From IMG/VR virus record IMGVR_UViG_3300045988_050264, positions 1 to 16,740 of that record: DNA of 16,740 nt, one strand, 5' to 3'. Source of the stretch: a virus. Below, one piece after another: positions 126 through 16,740 of this stretch. A program made the translations under genes and the position numbers. The first letter of the stretch is position 1, and each line of letters opens with the position of its first letter. Below the pieces are notes generated by a model. That model was not told where the DNA came from, made no database searches, and worked only from the letters and a program-made list of their open reading frames with translations.

Positions 126-154
126 TTGACAAAAAGGGGTGTACATGGTATACT
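126..154 (+). promoter_or_regulatory. Early promoter P1 (sigma-A type, extended -10)
   Basis: TTGACA (126-131), 17-nt spacer ending TGG, TATACT (149-154). A-rich tract upstream (106-121). Predicted start near 160. Confidence 0.8.
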
Positions 155-160
155 AAGCAT

Positions 161-494
161 GTAAACAAGAGAGGGAAACAAGAGGGCCGGCCGGGTGACC
201 GCCCACCGTCAAACCAGCGGGACGCCGACAGCGTCAAGGTGTGAACCTTGAAAAGTGAATACTGGACATAAACAAGCCCCACGGCACAAGCGCACCGGAC
301 AGCGCGTCAGCTACGCATATCAGCGGCCACGCGTTGCCTGGTCTGTTAGTGGGAAGTCGCTCCATTTTGTTGAAAAGGTGAAAGCCCCGCTGCGCATTGC
401 GAAAGCAGAACCGCAGCTGTTCGCCGGGTGAATTTGCGATAGCCCGGACGGTGAATGACGAGTCTTTGAAAATTAAGACGAAACACGCGCAAGT
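161..494 (+). ncRNA. ORF-free, GC-rich, hairpin-dense RNA downstream of P1; candidate packaging RNA (pRNA) or structured leader
   Basis: No SD-preceded ORF between P1 and the ATG at 556. nt 181-240 are ~72% GC by my count. Local helices: GACGC/GCGTC 221-235; CAAGGT-GTGA-ACCTTG 235-250 (GNRA loop); a ~12-bp bulged helix 295-307/329-341; CC(A)UUUU-GUUG-AAAAGG 362-378; GCTGCG/CGCAGC 389-417 enclosing UGC-GAAA-GCA; CCGGG/CCCGG 424-447. Direct repeat AAACAAGAG(AG)GG at 163-186. Function not demonstrated. Confidence 0.4.
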
Positions 495-545
495 CACGGC
501 AGAAATGCCGTGTCGGGTAACACCAAAATTCAACGACAAAAGGAG
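495..545 (+). repeat. Early intergenic hairpin+leader module, copy A
   Basis: CACGGCA-GAAA-TGCCGTG hairpin (495-512) overlapping the core GTGTCGGGTAACACCAAAATTCAACGACAAAAGGAG (510-545). ATG at 556. Confidence 0.85.
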
Positions 546-555
546 TACAAAAACT

Positions 556-816
556 ATGGCAAGACAGAGAATGATTACTCGCACTATCACTTTCCAGGAA
601 ACCGAGATTATGTGCCTGGACATTTCCACCGCACAGGCGCATGTTTCGACATTTTGCACGGCAAGCCCCTCGCCCCTGACGCTTGACCAGCTCAAGGCCC
701 GGTATGATACCGACACCAACAAGCTGGTTGCCATTCTCAACAACCGCACCACGGAACAGGTGTACGGCATGAGCGAGGATGATTTCATGGCACACGCACA
801 TATCATCACGCGCTAA
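556..816 (+). CDS. phi29 p6-like dsDNA-binding (histone-like) protein, paralogue 1 (86 aa)
   Basis: ATG at 556 lies 10 nt after AAAGGAG. The track ORF 397-816 is trimmed because its N-terminus reads through the non-coding repeat. MARQRMITRTI...CLDI...DTDT.K.V.I...GMSEDDFMAHA aligns with the product of 2710-3024. It also resembles my recollection of phi29 p6 (REITKTT ... YELPVEKFLEVA). Confidence 0.75.
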   Translation: MARQRMITRTITFQETEIMCLDISTAQAHVSTFCTASPSPLTLDQLKARYDTDTNKLVAILNNRTTEQVYGMSEDDFMAHAHIITR

Positions 817-822
817 TGACCA

Positions 823-875
823 GGCCCCAGCAATGGGGCCGTGTCGGGTAACACCAAATTCAACGACAAAAGGAG
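823..875 (+). repeat. Early intergenic hairpin+leader module, copy B
   Basis: GGCCCC-AGCAAT-GGGGCC (823-840) followed by GTGTCGGGTAACACCAAATTCAACGACAAAAGGAG (841-875). Starts 6 nt after the stop at 816. ATG at 885. Confidence 0.9.
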
Positions 876-884
876 AAACAAAAA

Positions 885-1223
885 ATGGACATCAATCAGC
901 GTGAAATTAATGAAGCATGCCGCGCATATTATGACGCCGCAATGACGGAGCGCGGTCAAATGCCGTGGGTTCCGGATAATAAGCCCTCGCCGTGGAAAAG
1001 ATTGCGTAGCTGTAGCGCAGATGTGTTAGAGACTCCCAACTTTTTCATTCTTCGGTCCTACAACACCGTTGTTGCTGTCATTGACAAGGATACTGGAAGC
1101 ACCTGGGATGTACTCCGCATGGTCTACGGCTACACAGCCACCAGCGCACAGCACATTACAAAGTTTTCCCACGACTACGGCAACGGCAATCGCTACACAT
1201 GGCGCGAGATTCCGAACCGCTGA
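885..1223 (+). CDS. Hypothetical early protein (112 aa)
   Basis: ORF with AAAGGAG 9 nt upstream. Flanked by repeat copies B and C. No family recognised. Confidence 0.8.
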   Translation: MDINQREINEACRAYYDAAMTERGQMPWVPDNKPSPWKRLRSCSADVLETPNFFILRSYNTVVAVIDKDTGSTWDVLRMVYGYTATSAQHITKFSHDYGNGNRYTWREIPNR

Positions 1224-1228
1224 CGAAT

Positions 1229-1282
1229 GGCCCCAGCAATGGGGGCCGTGTCGGGTAACACCAAATTCAACTACAAAAGGAG
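1229..1282 (+). repeat. Early intergenic hairpin+leader module, copy C
   Basis: GGCCCC-AGCAAT(G)-GGGGCC (1229-1247) followed by the core with one substitution (CAACTACAAAAGGAG). Starts 5 nt after the stop at 1223. Confidence 0.9.
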
Positions 1283-1290
1283 AAACAAAC

Positions 1291-1583: not shown

Positions 1584-1635
1584 GGCCCCAGCAATGGGGC
1601 CGTGTCGGGTAACACCAAATTCAACGACAAAGGGG
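1584..1635 (+). repeat. Early intergenic hairpin+leader module, copy D
   Basis: GGCCCC-AGCAAT-GGGGCC (1584-1601) followed by the core, ending ACAAAGGGG. ATG at 1643. Confidence 0.9.
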
Positions 1636-1642
1636 TAATATT

Positions 1643-2223: not shown

Positions 2224-2227
2224 CACT

Positions 2228-2277
2228 GGGCCTCGCGGCCCTGTGTCGGGTAACACCAAATTTAACAACAAAAGGAG
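2228..2277 (+). repeat. Early intergenic hairpin+leader module, copy E
   Basis: GGGCC-TCGC-GGCCC (2228-2241) followed by GTGTCGGGTAACACCAAATTTAACAACAAAAGGAG (2243-2277; two substitutions). ATG at 2288. Confidence 0.9.
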
Positions 2278-2287
2278 AAACAAAATT

Positions 2288-2506
2288 ATGATTACATTGC
2301 GCGCAAAAAAGAACTACACACCGGACGACATTCGTGCTCTCATAGAAGTCATTGAAATAGGCTCTGAGAATATGAAATGTGCAGAAACGTGTGAACGCTG
2401 TACCCATAGCACAGCTTGCGCCGACCTGTGCCGGTTTTACAACTATCTGTATGGCGTTTTGGATTCCTGGAGAAGTGATGATTTCTATCCCATGCCGAAA
2501 ATTTGA
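2288..2506 (+). CDS. Hypothetical Cys-rich early protein (72 aa)
   Basis: ATG at 2288 lies 10 nt after AAAGGAG. Track ORF 2189-2506 is trimmed. Contains CAETCERCTHSTACADLC. Confidence 0.75.
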   Translation: MITLRAKKNYTPDDIRALIEVIEIGSENMKCAETCERCTHSTACADLCRFYNYLYGVLDSWRSDDFYPMPKI

Positions 2507-4396: not shown

Positions 4397-6364
4397 ATGG
4401 CAACACGCAAGAATCGCGTGTTTGTCGGAGACTTTGAAACAACCGTGTACAAGGGCCAGGACCACACCGAAGTGTGGGCGGCGGCCTGTGTAGAGCTGTT
4501 CACAGAGGACGTTTCACTGTTCCATTCTATCGGCGAAATGTGGGACTTTCTCAAGGGACTGCGTGAGAACGTCATATGTTACTTTCACAATCTCAAGTTT
4601 GACGGTTCATTCTGGCTGTCCTATTTCTTGATAAATCTTGGCTACAAGCAAGCGTTTGAACAGTTCGGTGAAAACGACTTTGTGCGCATGAAGAACAAAG
4701 AAATGCCAAATAACAGTGTTAGTTACAGCATTTCAGGCATGGGCCAGTGGTATGACATAACCGTCAAGGTGAATGGGCATATTATCGAATTTAGGGACAG
4801 CTTGAAGCTACTGCCGTTTAGCGTTAAGGCAATCGGAAAGAGCTTTGAGACTAAGCACAAGAAGCTGGACATGGAATACACCGGCCTACGGTACGCAGGT
4901 TGTCCAATAACCCCTGAAGAACAGGAGTACATTAAGAATGACGTTCTTGTTGTAAAGGAAGCGCTGGAAATAATGTTCACTGAGGGGCACAAGAAACTTA
5001 CCATTGGAAGCTGTTGTTTGGCAGAATACAAGAAGTCCATAGGGAAAAAAGCCTACGCCGCAATGTTCCCGGACCTCTACCAAATGCCATTGGACAAATC
5101 ATTCGGTTCGGACAACGCAGGGCAATATGTTAATCGTTCGTACCGTGGCGGCTGGTGCTATTTAGCCCGTGGCAAGGAACAGAAGTTGTTCCACAATGGT
5201 GTAACAGCAGACGTTAACTCCCTGTACCCCTCCATGATGTCAAGCGAGTCCCTTAACAAATATCCAATTGGAGAACCTCACTTTTGGTCAGGCGACTTCA
5301 TACCAGACGAAGCAAAACGCGCAACGTCATACTACTTTGTGCGGTTCAAGACACGGTTCTACATTCGTCCCGGCAAACTGCCGTTCATACAGCTAAAGAA
5401 CAGCATGAGTTATCGCGCAAATGAGATGCTTGAAACCAGTGACCATTACAACAAGGAGGACGGAAAGTATTATCCAGTGTATTATGACCTTGATGGTAAC
5501 CTAAAACCAGCAATAGTAGAACTCACAATGACCATGACAGACTTTACACTTTTCAAAGAGCATTATGAGCTTGTTGATTTCCGCATTTTAGACGGATGCT
5601 GGTTCGACTCCGCTGTAGGAATCTTTGACCAGTACATTGATAAATACAAGAAAATCAAGATGGAGTCTAAGGGTGCAAAACGTCAGCTTGCCAAACTGTT
5701 CCTTAATAACCTGTACGGCAAGATGGCTTCATCACCAAACAGCGACTTCAAGATTGCATTCACCAAGGAGGACAAGACAATCGGCTTCCGCACCATTCGC
5801 GCAAACGACAAAACCCCAGGCTACATACCAGTGGGCAGTGCAATAACCAGCTACGCCAGAAACTTCACCATCCGAGCCGCACAAGCAAACTACTACGGCC
5901 CAGACAAACCAGGGTTTATCTATGCCGACACCGACTCAATCCATTGCGACCTTGCACCTGACCAGCTAAAAGGCATTAAGGTACACAATAAGAACTTCTG
6001 TTTTTGGGACCTTGAAAGCACCTGGGACGAAGGCTGGTTTGTACGCCAAAAGACCTACATCGAGCACGTCATAGCAGAAGAACTGGAACCTGTAGACACG
6101 CCATACTACAACGTCAAGTGTGCGGGTATGCCGAAGCAGTGCAAGGACCTATTTCTCATGGCGGTAAACGGTTTCACAGACGAAGAAGCGGCTGAACACA
6201 CAGAGATGGAACAGGCATTCTTGTACACAGACAAAGAGCGCACACAGCACCGTTCACTGACAGTTCAAGACTTCACCGTCGGCCTTGCGATTCCAGGCAA
6301 GCTACTCCCGAAGCGTATACCAGGCGGGGTTCTTCTTGTTGACAGCGTTTATGAAATGAGGTAA
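4397..6364 (+). CDS. Protein-primed family-B DNA polymerase (655 aa)
   Basis: Exo I GDFETT, Exo II HNLKFDGSF, Exo III YIKNDVLVV. Motif A DVNSLYPS, motif B KLFLNNLYGK, motif C YADTDSIH (5921-5938), KxY motif RQKTYIE. Confidence 0.95.
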   Translation: MATRKNRVFVGDFETTVYKGQDHTEVWAAACVELFTEDVSLFHSIGEMWDFLKGLRENVICYFHNLKFDGSFWLSYFLINLGYKQAFEQFGENDFVRMKNKEMPNNSVSYSISGMGQWYDITVKVNGHIIEFRDSLKLLPFSVKAIGKSFETKHKKLDMEYTGLRYAGCPITPEEQEYIKNDVLVVKEALEIMFTEGHKKLTIGSCCLAEYKKSIGKKAYAAMFPDLYQMPLDKSFGSDNAGQYVNRSYRGGWCYLARGKEQKLFHNGVTADVNSLYPSMMSSESLNKYPIGEPHFWSGDFIPDEAKRATSYYFVRFKTRFYIRPGKLPFIQLKNSMSYRANEMLETSDHYNKEDGKYYPVYYDLDGNLKPAIVELTMTMTDFTLFKEHYELVDFRILDGCWFDSAVGIFDQYIDKYKKIKMESKGAKRQLAKLFLNNLYGKMASSPNSDFKIAFTKEDKTIGFRTIRANDKTPGYIPVGSAITSYARNFTIRAAQANYYGPDKPGFIYADTDSIHCDLAPDQLKGIKVHNKNFCFWDLESTWDEGWFVRQKTYIEHVIAEELEPVDTPYYNVKCAGMPKQCKDLFLMAVNGFTDEEAAEHTEMEQAFLYTDKERTQHRSLTVQDFTVGLAIPGKLLPKRIPGGVLLVDSVYEMR

Positions 6365-6368
6365 TCAC

Positions 6369-6656
6369 ATGGAGCATTACAAGAAATACACGGTTATCGT
6401 GAACAAGCTGAAAGAGTTTGGAGATAGCCAAATTGTTATAATAAACCACGCAACTGGCAAGCCAACTATCTGGCAGAGAATTATCACCAAGGACAGAGAT
6501 AGCGTTCCTACTCTTTCTCCGTCACTACGAAACACCCTATGGCAGTTGTGCCTTAACGAAAAGGAATGTAACATAATACTTTGCGAAGATGGCGAAGTGG
6601 TAATCTGTGACCCTATCGCCGAAATCCGCAAGTATCGCTATCCCTCAAGCAGATAA
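6369..6656 (+). CDS. Hypothetical protein (95 aa), last gene of the replication operon
   Basis: ORF starting 4 nt after the DNAP stop, with a weak SD (GAGG). Followed by a strong terminator. Confidence 0.65.
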   Translation: MEHYKKYTVIVNKLKEFGDSQIVIINHATGKPTIWQRIITKDRDSVPTLSPSLRNTLWQLCLNEKECNIILCEDGEVVICDPIAEIRKYRYPSSR

Positions 6657-6671
6657 AGGCGGAACTAAGCT

Positions 6672-6705
6672 AAACACCCCTATGGAAAACCATAGGGGTG
6701 TTTTC
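6672..6705. terminator. Bidirectional intrinsic terminator between convergent operons
   Basis: AAACACCCCTATGG-AAAA-CCATAGGGGTGTTT perfect 14-bp stem, with a T-run on the + strand and TTTAGC on the - strand. Lies between the + operon end (6656) and the - strand ATPase end (6820). Confidence 0.85.
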
Positions 6706-6819
6706 ATATCTGTAACCCTTGCACCAACAAAGCGGCAACCTATCCGATAAACAGTCCCGGCGACATATTCCAGCCGTGGTTATCCGGGGAGTTCAGTGTT
6801 GGACACAATGGCAGATACC

Positions 6820-7872
6820 TTAATATGACAGCGCCTTTAACACAGCTTCCTTGCAACGCAGGTCTTTGAACCGGAAACATCCACGCTCAAAATACCAGCG
6901 CATATTTGTGAGAAACAGGTCATTCCTTTTAAGCATCACATAGTTTAATCCGTGGTCCTCTGTTGTTACTGTGATTTTACCCTTGAACGTGCTGTCAGGG
7001 CGATTGTCGCAATAGATAATGCCAAGTTCAGGAAACTCGCGCAATGCGTACTCTGTTCCGTTATACCGAAGTGTTGCAAGATAACGTCCTCTACCAGTTG
7101 GCTGGTCAATGAATGCCTTGCTATCATTCAAGTACACACATTGCGCACTGTATGCAACATAGCTGTTACGCGAAAATGCGCGATTAAAGCCGCTTTGTTT
7201 TTGCGCTTCACTTGCAGACTCGACAAAGCCCTGTTCAAGGACAAATCCGTCACCACGTAGGAACCTGGTATCATCGTTCAGGCGTTCGCTGATTCCCATC
7301 TCCACATAGTACGGATTGATGATGGATACTGGGTTAGCGCACATATACACCGGAACATAACGAATTTGTTCTCCGTTACCACGTGCAATAGACGTATGAA
7401 TCGACAGGAACTTCCTAATTTCGTCGTTGCAATAGTGGTTTGTCTCACTCTGAAACTCGTCAAAGAACATCCGCTTCACGTCGCTGAATAGGTGGCTGTA
7501 TTTTTTCAGCTGGTCAGCGCTGTTGAGAGATACGGCATATCCGCAACACTCATCATCCCAGAAAAGTTCGTGGAAGATACCACTTGCGCGGCGTTTGCTG
7601 GTGAACGTAACGCCGTCAAAGAACAACCTGCCAATGTCCTTAAAGAACTTGTCGGCACAATCGTCCAGTTCATAATTGTAACGATAAACCAGGCAGAATT
7701 TTTCGCGTTTCTTTTTCCACCCATTAGCGCATAGTCTACCAAAGAAAGTGGTTTTACCGCCGGTTCTGTTGGTGGTACACATATAAATCTCAGGACGGTT
7801 TCCGTTGATATCCATAAGAGACAACAGTTTTGCACCGTCATAATACTTTCCCACACTTTCACCTACTTTCAA
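6820..7872 (-). CDS. DNA encapsidation (packaging) ATPase, phi29 gp16-like (350 aa)
   Basis: Walker A TNRTGGKTT, Walker B RMFFDEF, and an ANPVSIINPYY motif as in recalled gp16 (SNAVSVVNPYF). The start is uncertain. One option is TTG at 7872, only 4 nt after AGGAG. The other is an in-frame GTG at 7854, 5 nt after AGGTG. Confidence 0.9.
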   Translation of the reverse strand: MKVGESVGKYYDGAKLLSLMDINGNRPEIYMCTTNRTGGKTTFFGRLCANGWKKKREKFCLVYRYNYELDDCADKFFKDIGRLFFDGVTFTSKRRASGIFHELFWDDECCGYAVSLNSADQLKKYSHLFSDVKRMFFDEFQSETNHYCNDEIRKFLSIHTSIARGNGEQIRYVPVYMCANPVSIINPYYVEMGISERLNDDTRFLRGDGFVLEQGFVESASEAQKQSGFNRAFSRNSYVAYSAQCVYLNDSKAFIDQPTGRGRYLATLRYNGTEYALREFPELGIIYCDNRPDSTFKGKITVTTEDHGLNYVMLKRNDLFLTNMRWYFERGCFRFKDLRCKEAVLKALSY

Positions 7873-7886
7873 AGTTCTCCTATTAG

Positions 7887-7915
7887 ATTATACCATAGCC
7901 CTTGACAAATGTCAA
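7887..7915 (-). promoter_or_regulatory. Promoter P4 for the packaging ATPase (extended -10)
   Basis: Minus strand reads TTGACA (7915-7910), 17-nt spacer ending TGG, TATAAT (7892-7887). The predicted start near 7880 would put the AGGAG at the very 5' end of the mRNA. Confidence 0.7.
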
Positions 7916-7930
7916 GCCATATGCTATAAT
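7902..7930 (+). promoter_or_regulatory. Promoter P3 for the lysis + morphogenesis operon (extended -10)
   Basis: TTGACA (7902-7907), 17-nt spacer ending TGC, TATAAT (7925-7930). Confidence 0.85.
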
Positions 7931-16714: not shown

Positions 16715-16740
16715 GTACCGGTTTTGAGAAACCTTAATTT
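16715..16740. repeat. Right inverted terminal repeat (26 bp)
   Basis: GTACCGGTTTTGAGAAACCTTAATTT is the exact reverse complement of nt 1-26. Confidence 0.95.

Follow-up and report, generated by a model that had tools for sequence, protein, structure and literature searches.

Which RNA is made next to the left end of the virus record IMGVR_UViG_3300045988_050264, and what does it do there? The window, i.e. the whole stretch of 16,740 nucleotides (nt) analysed here, is the complete linear genome of a phi29-like podophage from the gut. A previous sequence-only reading had interpreted positions 161–494 as a prohead or packaging RNA (pRNA) bridging the connector and the gp16 ATPase, and had named a novel structured or regulatory leader RNA as its fallback. 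It is the fallback that holds: the segment belongs to a non-coding, conserved and structured leader RNA of the early operon. We rate as evenly balanced the proposal that this leader (161–524) is built on a single unusual hammerhead, one ribozyme strand of which processes the polycistronic early messenger RNA (mRNA). A candidate pRNA was recognised at another place, downstream of the gp16 gene. The coordinates of all features are collected in Table 1.

The consensus promoter P1 that had been noted before was confirmed as TTGACA-17-TATACT with a TG extension, and transcription from this early promoter probably starts near 160–162. The relatives carry a promoter at the same position, with a different sequence in L005 and L006 (L-numbers are labels of related loci compared with the window). 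As had been stated, the leader is about 395 nt long before the first open reading frame (ORF) start led by a Shine-Dalgarno (SD) sequence, at position 556; the SD sequence AAGGAG lies at 540–545. The GC content of 181–240, estimated as ~72%, was measured as 71.7%, with 56% in 161–494 and 48.4% genome-wide. Mechanical ORFs overlap the leader (255–431 and an open frame from 397), but the homologous leaders of relatives differ by 1-nt indels, which rules out coding potential, identifies 161–555 as non-coding and agrees with the earlier statement that no credible ORF lies there.

Homologues of the 161–555 leader were found in at least 13 related gut-metagenome genomes. The folding signal of the single sequence is weak (z = −2.2; opposite strand −1.8). 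In an alignment of 11 leaders, 91–93% of cells are paired compared to 29–44% when the partners are slid. Covariation in related genomes, which the sequence-only reading had named as a check, was detected, with changes on both sides at 12 pairs (2–5 in slid controls) and a covariation score of 0.148 (≤0.065 in slid controls). The conserved RNA extends to position 524 and not just to 494 as assumed initially. The tandem repeat AAACAAGAG(AG)GG described at 163–186 is present, and the long bulged helix is conserved as 294–342. None of the GNRA loops of the three hairpins described before is conserved: the GUGA hairpin 235–250 keeps three pairs in relatives, and the GAAA hairpins 389–417 and 495–512 are replaced by other hairpins, unrelated ones in the case of 495–512. 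Rfam yielded nothing at gathering score for the whole window and nothing at E ≤ 10 for positions 1–1000. A genome-collection scan with the 5′-domain pattern revealed no cellular copy of the leader 5′ domain, and 14-mer scans of viral contigs (GGTCTGTTAGTGGG, GCTGTTCGCCGGGT) gave more than 100 chance matches each and no relatives beyond the known ones.

The 3′ part of the leader has a recognisable relationship. L246, a distant, AT-rich relative with 66% polymerase identity, has 32 nt in common with the leader according to BLAST, and this piece lies inside a textbook hammerhead with a perfect core and all three stems: GUGCCC-CUGAUGA-GUCUU..AAGAC-GAA-ACAC-(hairpin)-GUGU-A and, across the cleavage site, GGGCAC. 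The Rfam type-III model assigns 25 bits to it; a type-III hammerhead was rejected as only 8–9 nt remain for stem I. Scanning public collections with the pattern of stem II and GAAAC revealed 82 stretches of viral contigs, and a further 21 came from bacterial genome records. Almost all were canonical type-I hammerheads located 20–60 nt upstream of a start codon. One of these was aligned end to end by the Rfam type-I model, below threshold. A covariance model built from 17 canonical type-I hammerheads found by this pattern gave full-length matches of 45–68 bits in L246, L258, L261, L285, L308 and L332, which have canonical cores. In the window, it matched 456–514 with 39.4 bits (E 9.1e-11; model positions 9–52, U4 to C17), and this was its sole significant match within the genome.

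The window shares with the type-I hammerheads known from intergenic regions of phage and prophage genomes (Perreault et al. 2011, PMC3088659; RF00163) the three stems around a core, the GUC triplet and a place just upstream of an SD sequence and a start codon within a polycistronic operon of a phage. Its stem II and GAAAC are near-identical to more than 100 gut-phage type-I examples. Many phi29-like gut phages, including ones with as little as 31–36% polymerase identity, have such a hammerhead near their left end; in the most distant relatives (L316) the hammerhead lies between ORFs and not in a long leader. We are confident that 377–524 is homologous to the type-I hammerhead family common in gut phages. 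A literature search for hammerheads in phi29-like phages or natural trans-acting phage hammerheads returned nothing relevant.

A hammerhead family with stem II GUCNNUGNAAAUUNNGAC (loci L255–L355) is widespread in gut phage contigs and Clostridia genome bins. Its 5′ end after cleavage can refold as a hairpin, and all members tested score under the Rfam gathering scores. In L244 (5103–5172 and 720–900), a 22.5-kb relative with a transfer RNA (tRNA) gene, the leader has CCCCUGAUGAG, and no convincing stem II could be parsed for it.

Folded alone, 377–524 gives the hammerhead layout with three helices around a core and an open stem I. Alignment with L258 and L285 (...GUAAAGCGCCC-CUGACGAG) sets the window's GAAAGCCC-C at the position of stem I and C3, and in the canonical relative L258 the homologue of 377–388 reads AAAGCGCCC-C. 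The window lacks the contiguous core strand C3-U4-G5-A6-N7-G8-A9: UGACGA at 456–461 is a perfect U4 to A9 but is preceded by A455, and the sole stem I-adjacent C (C388) lies 67 nt upstream. A455 and G451 were rejected as C3, since no stem I strand adjoins them. C3 and UGA are separated by an insertion of 63–67 nt which comprises two hairpins, and comparison of the sequences suggests C-(insertion)-(G)UGA-(4–5 nt)-RA as the general form of the core in the clade. The same arrangement with different sequences occurs in the L312-type clade (L312, L286, L265 and L297), whose polymerases are ~69% identical to that of the window.

Stem II, stem III and hairpin B (424–447) are 100% paired; stem II shows two compensatory pairs, hairpin B one, and stem III is invariant. 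Stem I is 97.7% paired in its proximal part and 63.6% in its distal part, where the pairing is lower because the register varies. G12A13A14 (480–482) and the following pair A483–U513 (A15.1–U16.1) are invariant in all relatives. The cleavage triplet GUC, which conforms to the NUH rule, occupies 512–514, so that C514 corresponds to position 17 and the predicted cut falls between 514 and 515. Within the insertion, the variable stem 389–417 shows four compensatory pairs, and in relatives its place is taken by an insert of two hairpins which CCUGU/ACAGG closes. Hairpin B has a loop (UUGCG, 434–438) that pairs with CGCAA (488–492) on the 5′ side of the stem III loop, and this pseudoknot covaries (GUGCG/CGCAC in L005, UGUGGG/CCCACA in the L312 clade). 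Positions 388 and 460 were U-A in nine, C-G in two and U-G, C-A and A-G in one each of 14 sequences, which largely appears to follow the C3-G8 to U3-A8 covariation known from natural hammerheads (PMC3088659). GUGA, GAAAC, ACAC and GUGUH are invariant in the relatives. Because of the 388/460 pattern, the covarying pseudoknot and these invariant motifs, we argue that the interrupted core is a maintained fold and not a product of decay.

Several observations weigh against a functional hammerhead. The register is ambiguous, as other members of the clade have A or C instead of U456, and the invariant GUGA at 451–454 would require N7 to be expanded to 4–5 nt. The 388/460 pair is broken in 3 of 14 sequences, and GUGA is replaced by GUAA in L297. 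The pairs of stem III and of proximal stem I never vary within the clade, hence they provide no covariation signal. The Rfam hammerhead models produced only a partial type-III match in the window (E 8.5, below gathering score); the canonical relatives likewise score under the Rfam hammerhead thresholds. To our knowledge, a large insertion between C3 and U4 is not on record for any hammerhead. Under ordinary conditions, as opposed to extreme salt, even 2 extra nt beside C3 severely impair the activity (PMC3088659).

These points lead to the question whether the hammerhead is a catalytically dead relic, so that the leader would be a structured 5′ untranslated region (UTR) which serves, for instance, in stability or as a decoy, or regulates early expression by binding a protein or ligand, and a protein of the host or phage would recognise the repeated cassettes described below. 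The core interrupted by 63–67 nt, the variability of U456 and G460, the loss of the G at proposed G5 in L297, the known impairment by small insertions near C3 and a helix competing with stem I (351–361/377–387) that is as stable as stem I itself would fit such a relic. We nevertheless regard it as rather unlikely, since GUGA, RA, GAAAC, ACAC and GUGUH are invariant in the window and L312 clades despite divergence elsewhere, since 388 and 460 covary, and since the covarying pseudoknot ties the insertion to stem III in a manner resembling an integrated fold.

The 15-mer GTGTCGGGTAACACC occurs in five exact copies, always on the plus strand (510, 841, 1248, 1602 and 2243), whereas 0.42 copies are expected by chance with three mismatches allowed. 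The order within a cassette is stop codon, GC hairpin, GUGUC and, across the cut, GGGUAACACC, then an A-rich spacer, SD sequence and start codon. The enzyme half adjoins the first copy only; a separate enzyme core was looked for beside each cassette and none was found, so that the other four copies are orphans. Likewise, the core strand GACGAAAC is present once per early region in the window and in every relative examined, and relatives with a canonical core have one complete hammerhead followed by 4–5 orphan cassettes. In this respect the window, with one enzyme half and five substrate halves, differs from known phage cases, which have a complete ribozyme per site.

In ~80 cassettes from 17 genomes, C predominates at position 17 (69 cassettes), with U in eight, A in three and G in none; matches to GUGUG-GGR in the 17 genomes lie inside genes only. 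Moreover, the bases 3′ of the cut track the single-copy leader arm clade by clade. The window clade combines the leader arm GCCC (+GGUG) with the post-cut bases GGGU (..CACC), L246 UGCCC with GGGCA, the loci L258, L261 and L285 CRCCC with GGGUG, and the L312 clade UCUCC with GGAGA. With their own leader arm, later cassettes form 4.62 contiguous pairs and first sites 4.64, compared to 3.45 across clades. Cofolding of 377–487 with cassette 2 predicts a trans hammerhead complex in which stems I and III abut the substrate hairpin and which is 12.5 kcal/mol better than the RNAs apart. A distance of ~200 nt separates even the first site from the enzyme in L241, L247 and L251.

The gene order around the cassettes is variable. 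In L001, which is 93% identical, the first two early ORFs are swapped (window 556–1223, L001 557–1224), and the joints coincide with the repeated hairpin and GUGUC cassettes, which seem to be recombination modules. As the cassettes are recombination joints, concerted evolution is a real alternative for their uniformity, and the shuffled ORF order, which would let recombination instead of pairing with the leader account for their similarity, speaks against orphan-site cleavage. The hammerhead could accordingly act in cis only, cutting between 514 and 515 to remove the leader, with the other four cassettes being copies of a 5′-UTR module spread by recombination that serve as 3′-end stabiliser hairpins with strong translation-initiation regions or as sites of a protein RNase. 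Besides the shuffling, the type-I topology, which leaves stem III closed after the cut, the mere 4–6 bp of stem III with orphan cassettes and the known occurrence of hammerheads in 5′ UTRs of early phage operons (PMC3088659) are in line with this explanation. It is, however, unlikely in our judgement: GUGUH-GGR is kept at every orphan cassette in clades with 64–70% polymerase identity while the hairpin and spacer sequences drift, G is absent from position 17, the match of the orphan cassettes to their own leader arm is as good as that of the first sites, and the first site of three loci is itself remote from the enzyme.

In the processing model, the hammerhead would cut after C514 and free a leader RNA of ~354 nt capped by hairpins at both ends, i.e. 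a GC-rich hairpin stack at the 5′ end and a hairpin with a cyclic phosphate at the 3′ end, and the first mRNA would be left with a 5′-OH end. The GC-rich 5′ hairpins may stabilise the released ribozyme. The same enzyme strand would then pair with the four orphan cassettes, over a long range or in trans and within its own transcript or a different one, and cut them. In this way, the early transcript would be converted into single-gene mRNAs, each with a protective 3′ hairpin and a 5′-OH leader carrying the ribosome-binding site. A type-I enzyme holds its own stem III 3′ strand after the cut in cis, and cleavage of orphan sites therefore needs strand exchange, which is a further difficulty for the model. 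Such an exchange seems plausible, as the predicted stem III has only 4–5 bp closing an internal loop and a hairpin, the modelled hairpin 495–512 overlaps the GUG of site 1, the calculated helix 351–361/377–387 is isoenergetic with stem I, and the first site is remote in L241, L247 and L251. Helix 351–361/377–387 and hairpin 495–512 would let the arms exchange partners.

We infer that the complete processing model with cleavage at orphan sites deserves at most even odds and possibly less. The specific proposal that the hammerhead strand released with the leader is a multi-substrate enzyme for 4–6 orphan cassettes, with a core that tolerates the 63–67-nt insertion or is controlled by it, is tentative, and we lean somewhat against it. 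A precedent exists in multiple complete hammerheads which are located beside prophage genes and with which polycistronic RNA is cut in vitro (PMC3088659); relative to this, one enzyme for many sites would be new.

Control by the insertion raises the further possibility that 389–455 and the 5′ domain form a sensor, making the leader an allosteric ribozyme which times early gene expression in response to a ligand, a protein or another RNA. The large invariant 12-nt loop of hairpin B, conserved single-stranded motifs and two mutually exclusive pairings of the stem I strand would suit a sensor. On the other hand, there was no match to a riboswitch or any other Rfam family, no candidate ligand is apparent, and the pseudoknot already explains the loop of hairpin B, which makes this explanation very improbable. 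Helix 351–361/377–387, the alternative pairing, is paired in 94–97% of cells, its duplex energy of −9.3 kcal/mol equals that of stem I, and an analogous helix exists in L258.

A conserved 5′ domain of ~200 nt lies ahead of the hammerhead module. Purine-rich transcript starts resembling CAAGAGAGGGAA are also found in L246 (128–150) and the distant L316 (118–135), and CAAGAGAGGGAA directly follows the −10 box even where a phi29-like phage has just 32% polymerase identity. Hairpin 221–235 shows compensatory changes at three pairs, and in L356 the entire block 184–235 is swapped for other GC-rich hairpins. These GC-rich 5′ hairpins may protect the 5′ end. Positions 263–268 are predicted to pair with 418–423; the pairs are invariant and hence give no covariation signal. 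The changes in hairpin 294–342 are mostly between G-C and G-U, with one compensatory pair. The motif ACCUUGAAAA(G/C)UGAAUA (245–261; also L258, L261 and L312) is kept across clades whose leaders are otherwise unalignable, and it resembles the stem II loop region UUUGAAAAUUAA as well as window positions 369–381. The left ends of L246 (90–245), L258, L261, L285, L312 and L286 carry two to three tandem copies of a promoter and short RNA upstream of the hammerhead leader, counted within the first 100–450 nt of the oriented loci; the window has one copy.

Can the leader be a pRNA at all? Its left-end position behind an early promoter matches that of phi29 (PMC11476376), and, as had been pointed out, the genome encodes a phi29-type connector and gp16. 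The likeness is limited to this position, and the pRNA architecture is absent. The Rfam pRNA model RF00044 had no match at gathering score and, in 1–1000, none at E ≤ 10. The transcript up to the hammerhead site has ~354 nt instead of 120–174 nt, and no helix joins its 5′ and 3′ ends. The consensus structure of the leader contains neither a three-way junction nor a conserved pair of complementary 4-nt loops, the sole loop pairing (434–438/488–492) being the pseudoknot within the ribozyme. Furthermore, closely related ATPases and connectors do not go along with a conserved 5′ domain: the domain shrinks to ~90 nt in L261 or is replaced, as in the block swapped in L356, although the gp16 proteins of L261, L258 and L285 are 73–81% identical to that of the window. 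Finally, a far better pRNA-like RNA is encoded at 6818–6706 on the minus strand; the sequence-only reading had seen no other pRNA gene and had itself regarded a pRNA elsewhere in the genome as refuting its proposal. A role of the leader as pRNA is thus extremely improbable.

When other non-coding stretches were folded, the 3′ UTR of gp16 stood out, and the pRNA-like RNA was recognised there, within 6650–6825. It begins two bases past the gp16 stop codon, has 113 nt and ends at a terminator hairpin (6703–6672). The RNA is conserved in five clades of gut phi29-like phages. RNAalifold proposed 30 pairs, 13 of which show compensatory changes; together with the loop-loop pairs, 96.7% of cells are paired compared to ≤40% in slid controls, double changes occur at 15 pairs (≤7 in slid controls), and the covariation score is 0.435 (≤0.104). 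At alignment columns 44/86, for example, C-G is present in seven sequences, G-C in three and A-U in one.

The topology is that of a helix A with a bulge, a three-way junction, a C helix with a bulge loop and an E hairpin, and a D hairpin. The terminal helix has a 3-nt bulge. One arm contains the bulge loop AUAACCA (AACC 6781–6778) and the D hairpin the loop AUAGGUUG (GGUU 6740–6737). These complementary loop 4-mers covary, being AACC/GGUU in the window and the L312 clade, AAGC/GCUU in L258 and L285, and UAGC/GCUG in L261. The pRNA of phi29 itself uses AACC/GGUU. A length of ~113 nt, the order of the elements of domain I and the complementary loop 4-mers are shared with the phi29 pRNA (PMC5066667, PMC4201828), whereas the location in the ATPase 3′ UTR instead of the left end and the helix bulge on the 3′ strand are different. 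RF00044 did not match 6660–6830 at E ≤ 10, i.e. sequence or covariance-model similarity to this family is not detectable. According to a recent review, pRNA is known only from Bacillus phages (PMC11476376). The comparative sequence analysis suggests the RNA at 6818–6706 as a candidate for a new divergent pRNA at a new genomic position.

The genome has inverted terminal repeats of 26 bp (1–26 and 16715–16740), consistent with protein-primed replication; the repeat of phi29 is much shorter (6 bp). Besides the genes in Table 1, the phi29-like set includes a phi29-type major capsid protein, tail knob, connector and lower collar. The layout departs from that of phi29: the early operon extends rightwards from the left end, the late genes likewise point rightwards, and the minus strand carries the ATPase gene alone. 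BLAST with genome and leader as queries revealed no near relative among deposited phages, and human-gut metagenomes contain many relatives. A scan of the window for tRNA and transfer-messenger RNA (tmRNA) genes was negative. Two overlapping divergent promoters of perfect consensus are located at 7887–7930, directed leftwards to the gp16 gene with the pRNA-like RNA and rightwards to the late genes. A second perfect sigma-70-type promoter, P2 (2528–2557), is followed by a GC-rich leader of ~150 nt, which gave z = −1.7 when folded as a pRNA candidate (2560–2712). The leader begins with AAGGCGUAGCCG, in agreement with the promoter-proximal RNA of the left ends of L285, L312 and L286.

Table 1. Positions of RNA elements, cassettes and genes in the window.
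Feature	Coordinates	Strand	Remarks
Early promoter P1, TTGACA-17-TGgTATACT	126..154	+	TG extension
Purine-rich 5′ end, tandem repeat AAACAAGAG(AG)GG	163..186	+	
Three GC-rich 5′ hairpins	184..235	+	184-204, 206-220, 221-235
Motif ACCUUGAAAAGUGAAUACUGGACA	245..268	+	almost invariant in clade; recurs in L258, L261 and L312 leaders
Long bulged hairpin	294..342	+	17 pairs; 95.7% of cells paired
Strand able to pair with 377-387	351..361	+	alternative to stem I; mimics substrate strand
Stem I 5′ strand GGUG-AAA-GCCC	377-387	+	followed by C388, proposed C3
Insertion within hammerhead core	389..455	+	variable hairpin 389-417, linker, hairpin B 424-447, second linker
Enzyme core GUGA-AUGAC-GA	452..482	+	includes stem II 462-466/475-479 and G12A13A14 480-482
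Stem III ACACG 483-487 / CGUGU 509-513	483..514	+	encloses hairpin 495-512
Stem I 3′ strand GGGUAACACC 515-524	515..555	+	followed by A-rich spacer and SD of first early ORF
Cassette 2	823..883	+	hairpin 823-840, 15-mer 841-855, SD before ORF 885; no enzyme half
Cassette 3	1230..1290	+	15-mer 1248-1262, before ORF starting 1291; orphan
Cassette 4	1584..1642	+	15-mer 1602-1616, before ORF 1643; orphan
Cassette 5	2227..2288	+	15-mer 2243-2257, before ORF starting 2289; orphan
Protein-primed family-B DNA polymerase	4397-6364		phi29-like gene set
pRNA-like RNA, 113 nt (candidate)	6706..6818	minus	3′ UTR of gp16 ATPase gene, mid-genome
gp16-type packaging ATPase	7872-6820	minus	phi29-like gene set

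The module of the window differs from known type-I hammerheads in several respects: the core strand is split after C3 by a structured insertion of 63–67 nt, N7 is possibly expanded, stem III has an internal hairpin, the conserved 5′ domain precedes the module, and the score lies below the Rfam thresholds. Discontinuous or trans-acting hammerheads are represented by the mammalian Clec2 3′-UTR hammerhead and the engineered Haseloff-Gerlach ribozymes, which have one substrate per enzyme or are man-made. Common to these and the window are enzyme and substrate strands that lie far apart or on separate RNAs and arms of 4–8 bp flanking NUH; unlike them, the window has one natural enzyme strand and an adjacent cis site in addition to repeated cassettes, which number 4–6. 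The HHphage and HHmeta variants from the haloviruses HF1/HF2 and saltern metagenomes (PMC3088659) also have extra nucleotides beside C3, are found a few nt before the first ORF of a polycistronic early transcript and, like the window, belong to lytic viruses with linear double-stranded DNA. Their insertion comprises 2 nt (2a, 2b) and they need very high salt, whereas the insertion of the window is long and folded and its phage lives in the gut.

Hammerheads are regarded as self-cleaving RNAs with one ribozyme per site. If the proposal is true, a phage operon with one enzyme and many sites would be a natural counterpart of the engineered trans-cleaving ribozymes and would represent a simple, RNA-only route to operon processing. 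Likewise, the large folded insertion in the core would extend what the hammerhead fold is seen to tolerate, and the element could be a natural regulated ribozyme. The hammerhead family of gut phages is abundant yet lies under the Rfam thresholds, so that annotation pipelines miss it. With a covarying pRNA-like RNA at another genomic position in the phi29-like phages of the gut, it becomes possible to test directly how RNA-dependent DNA packaging arose and how general it is.

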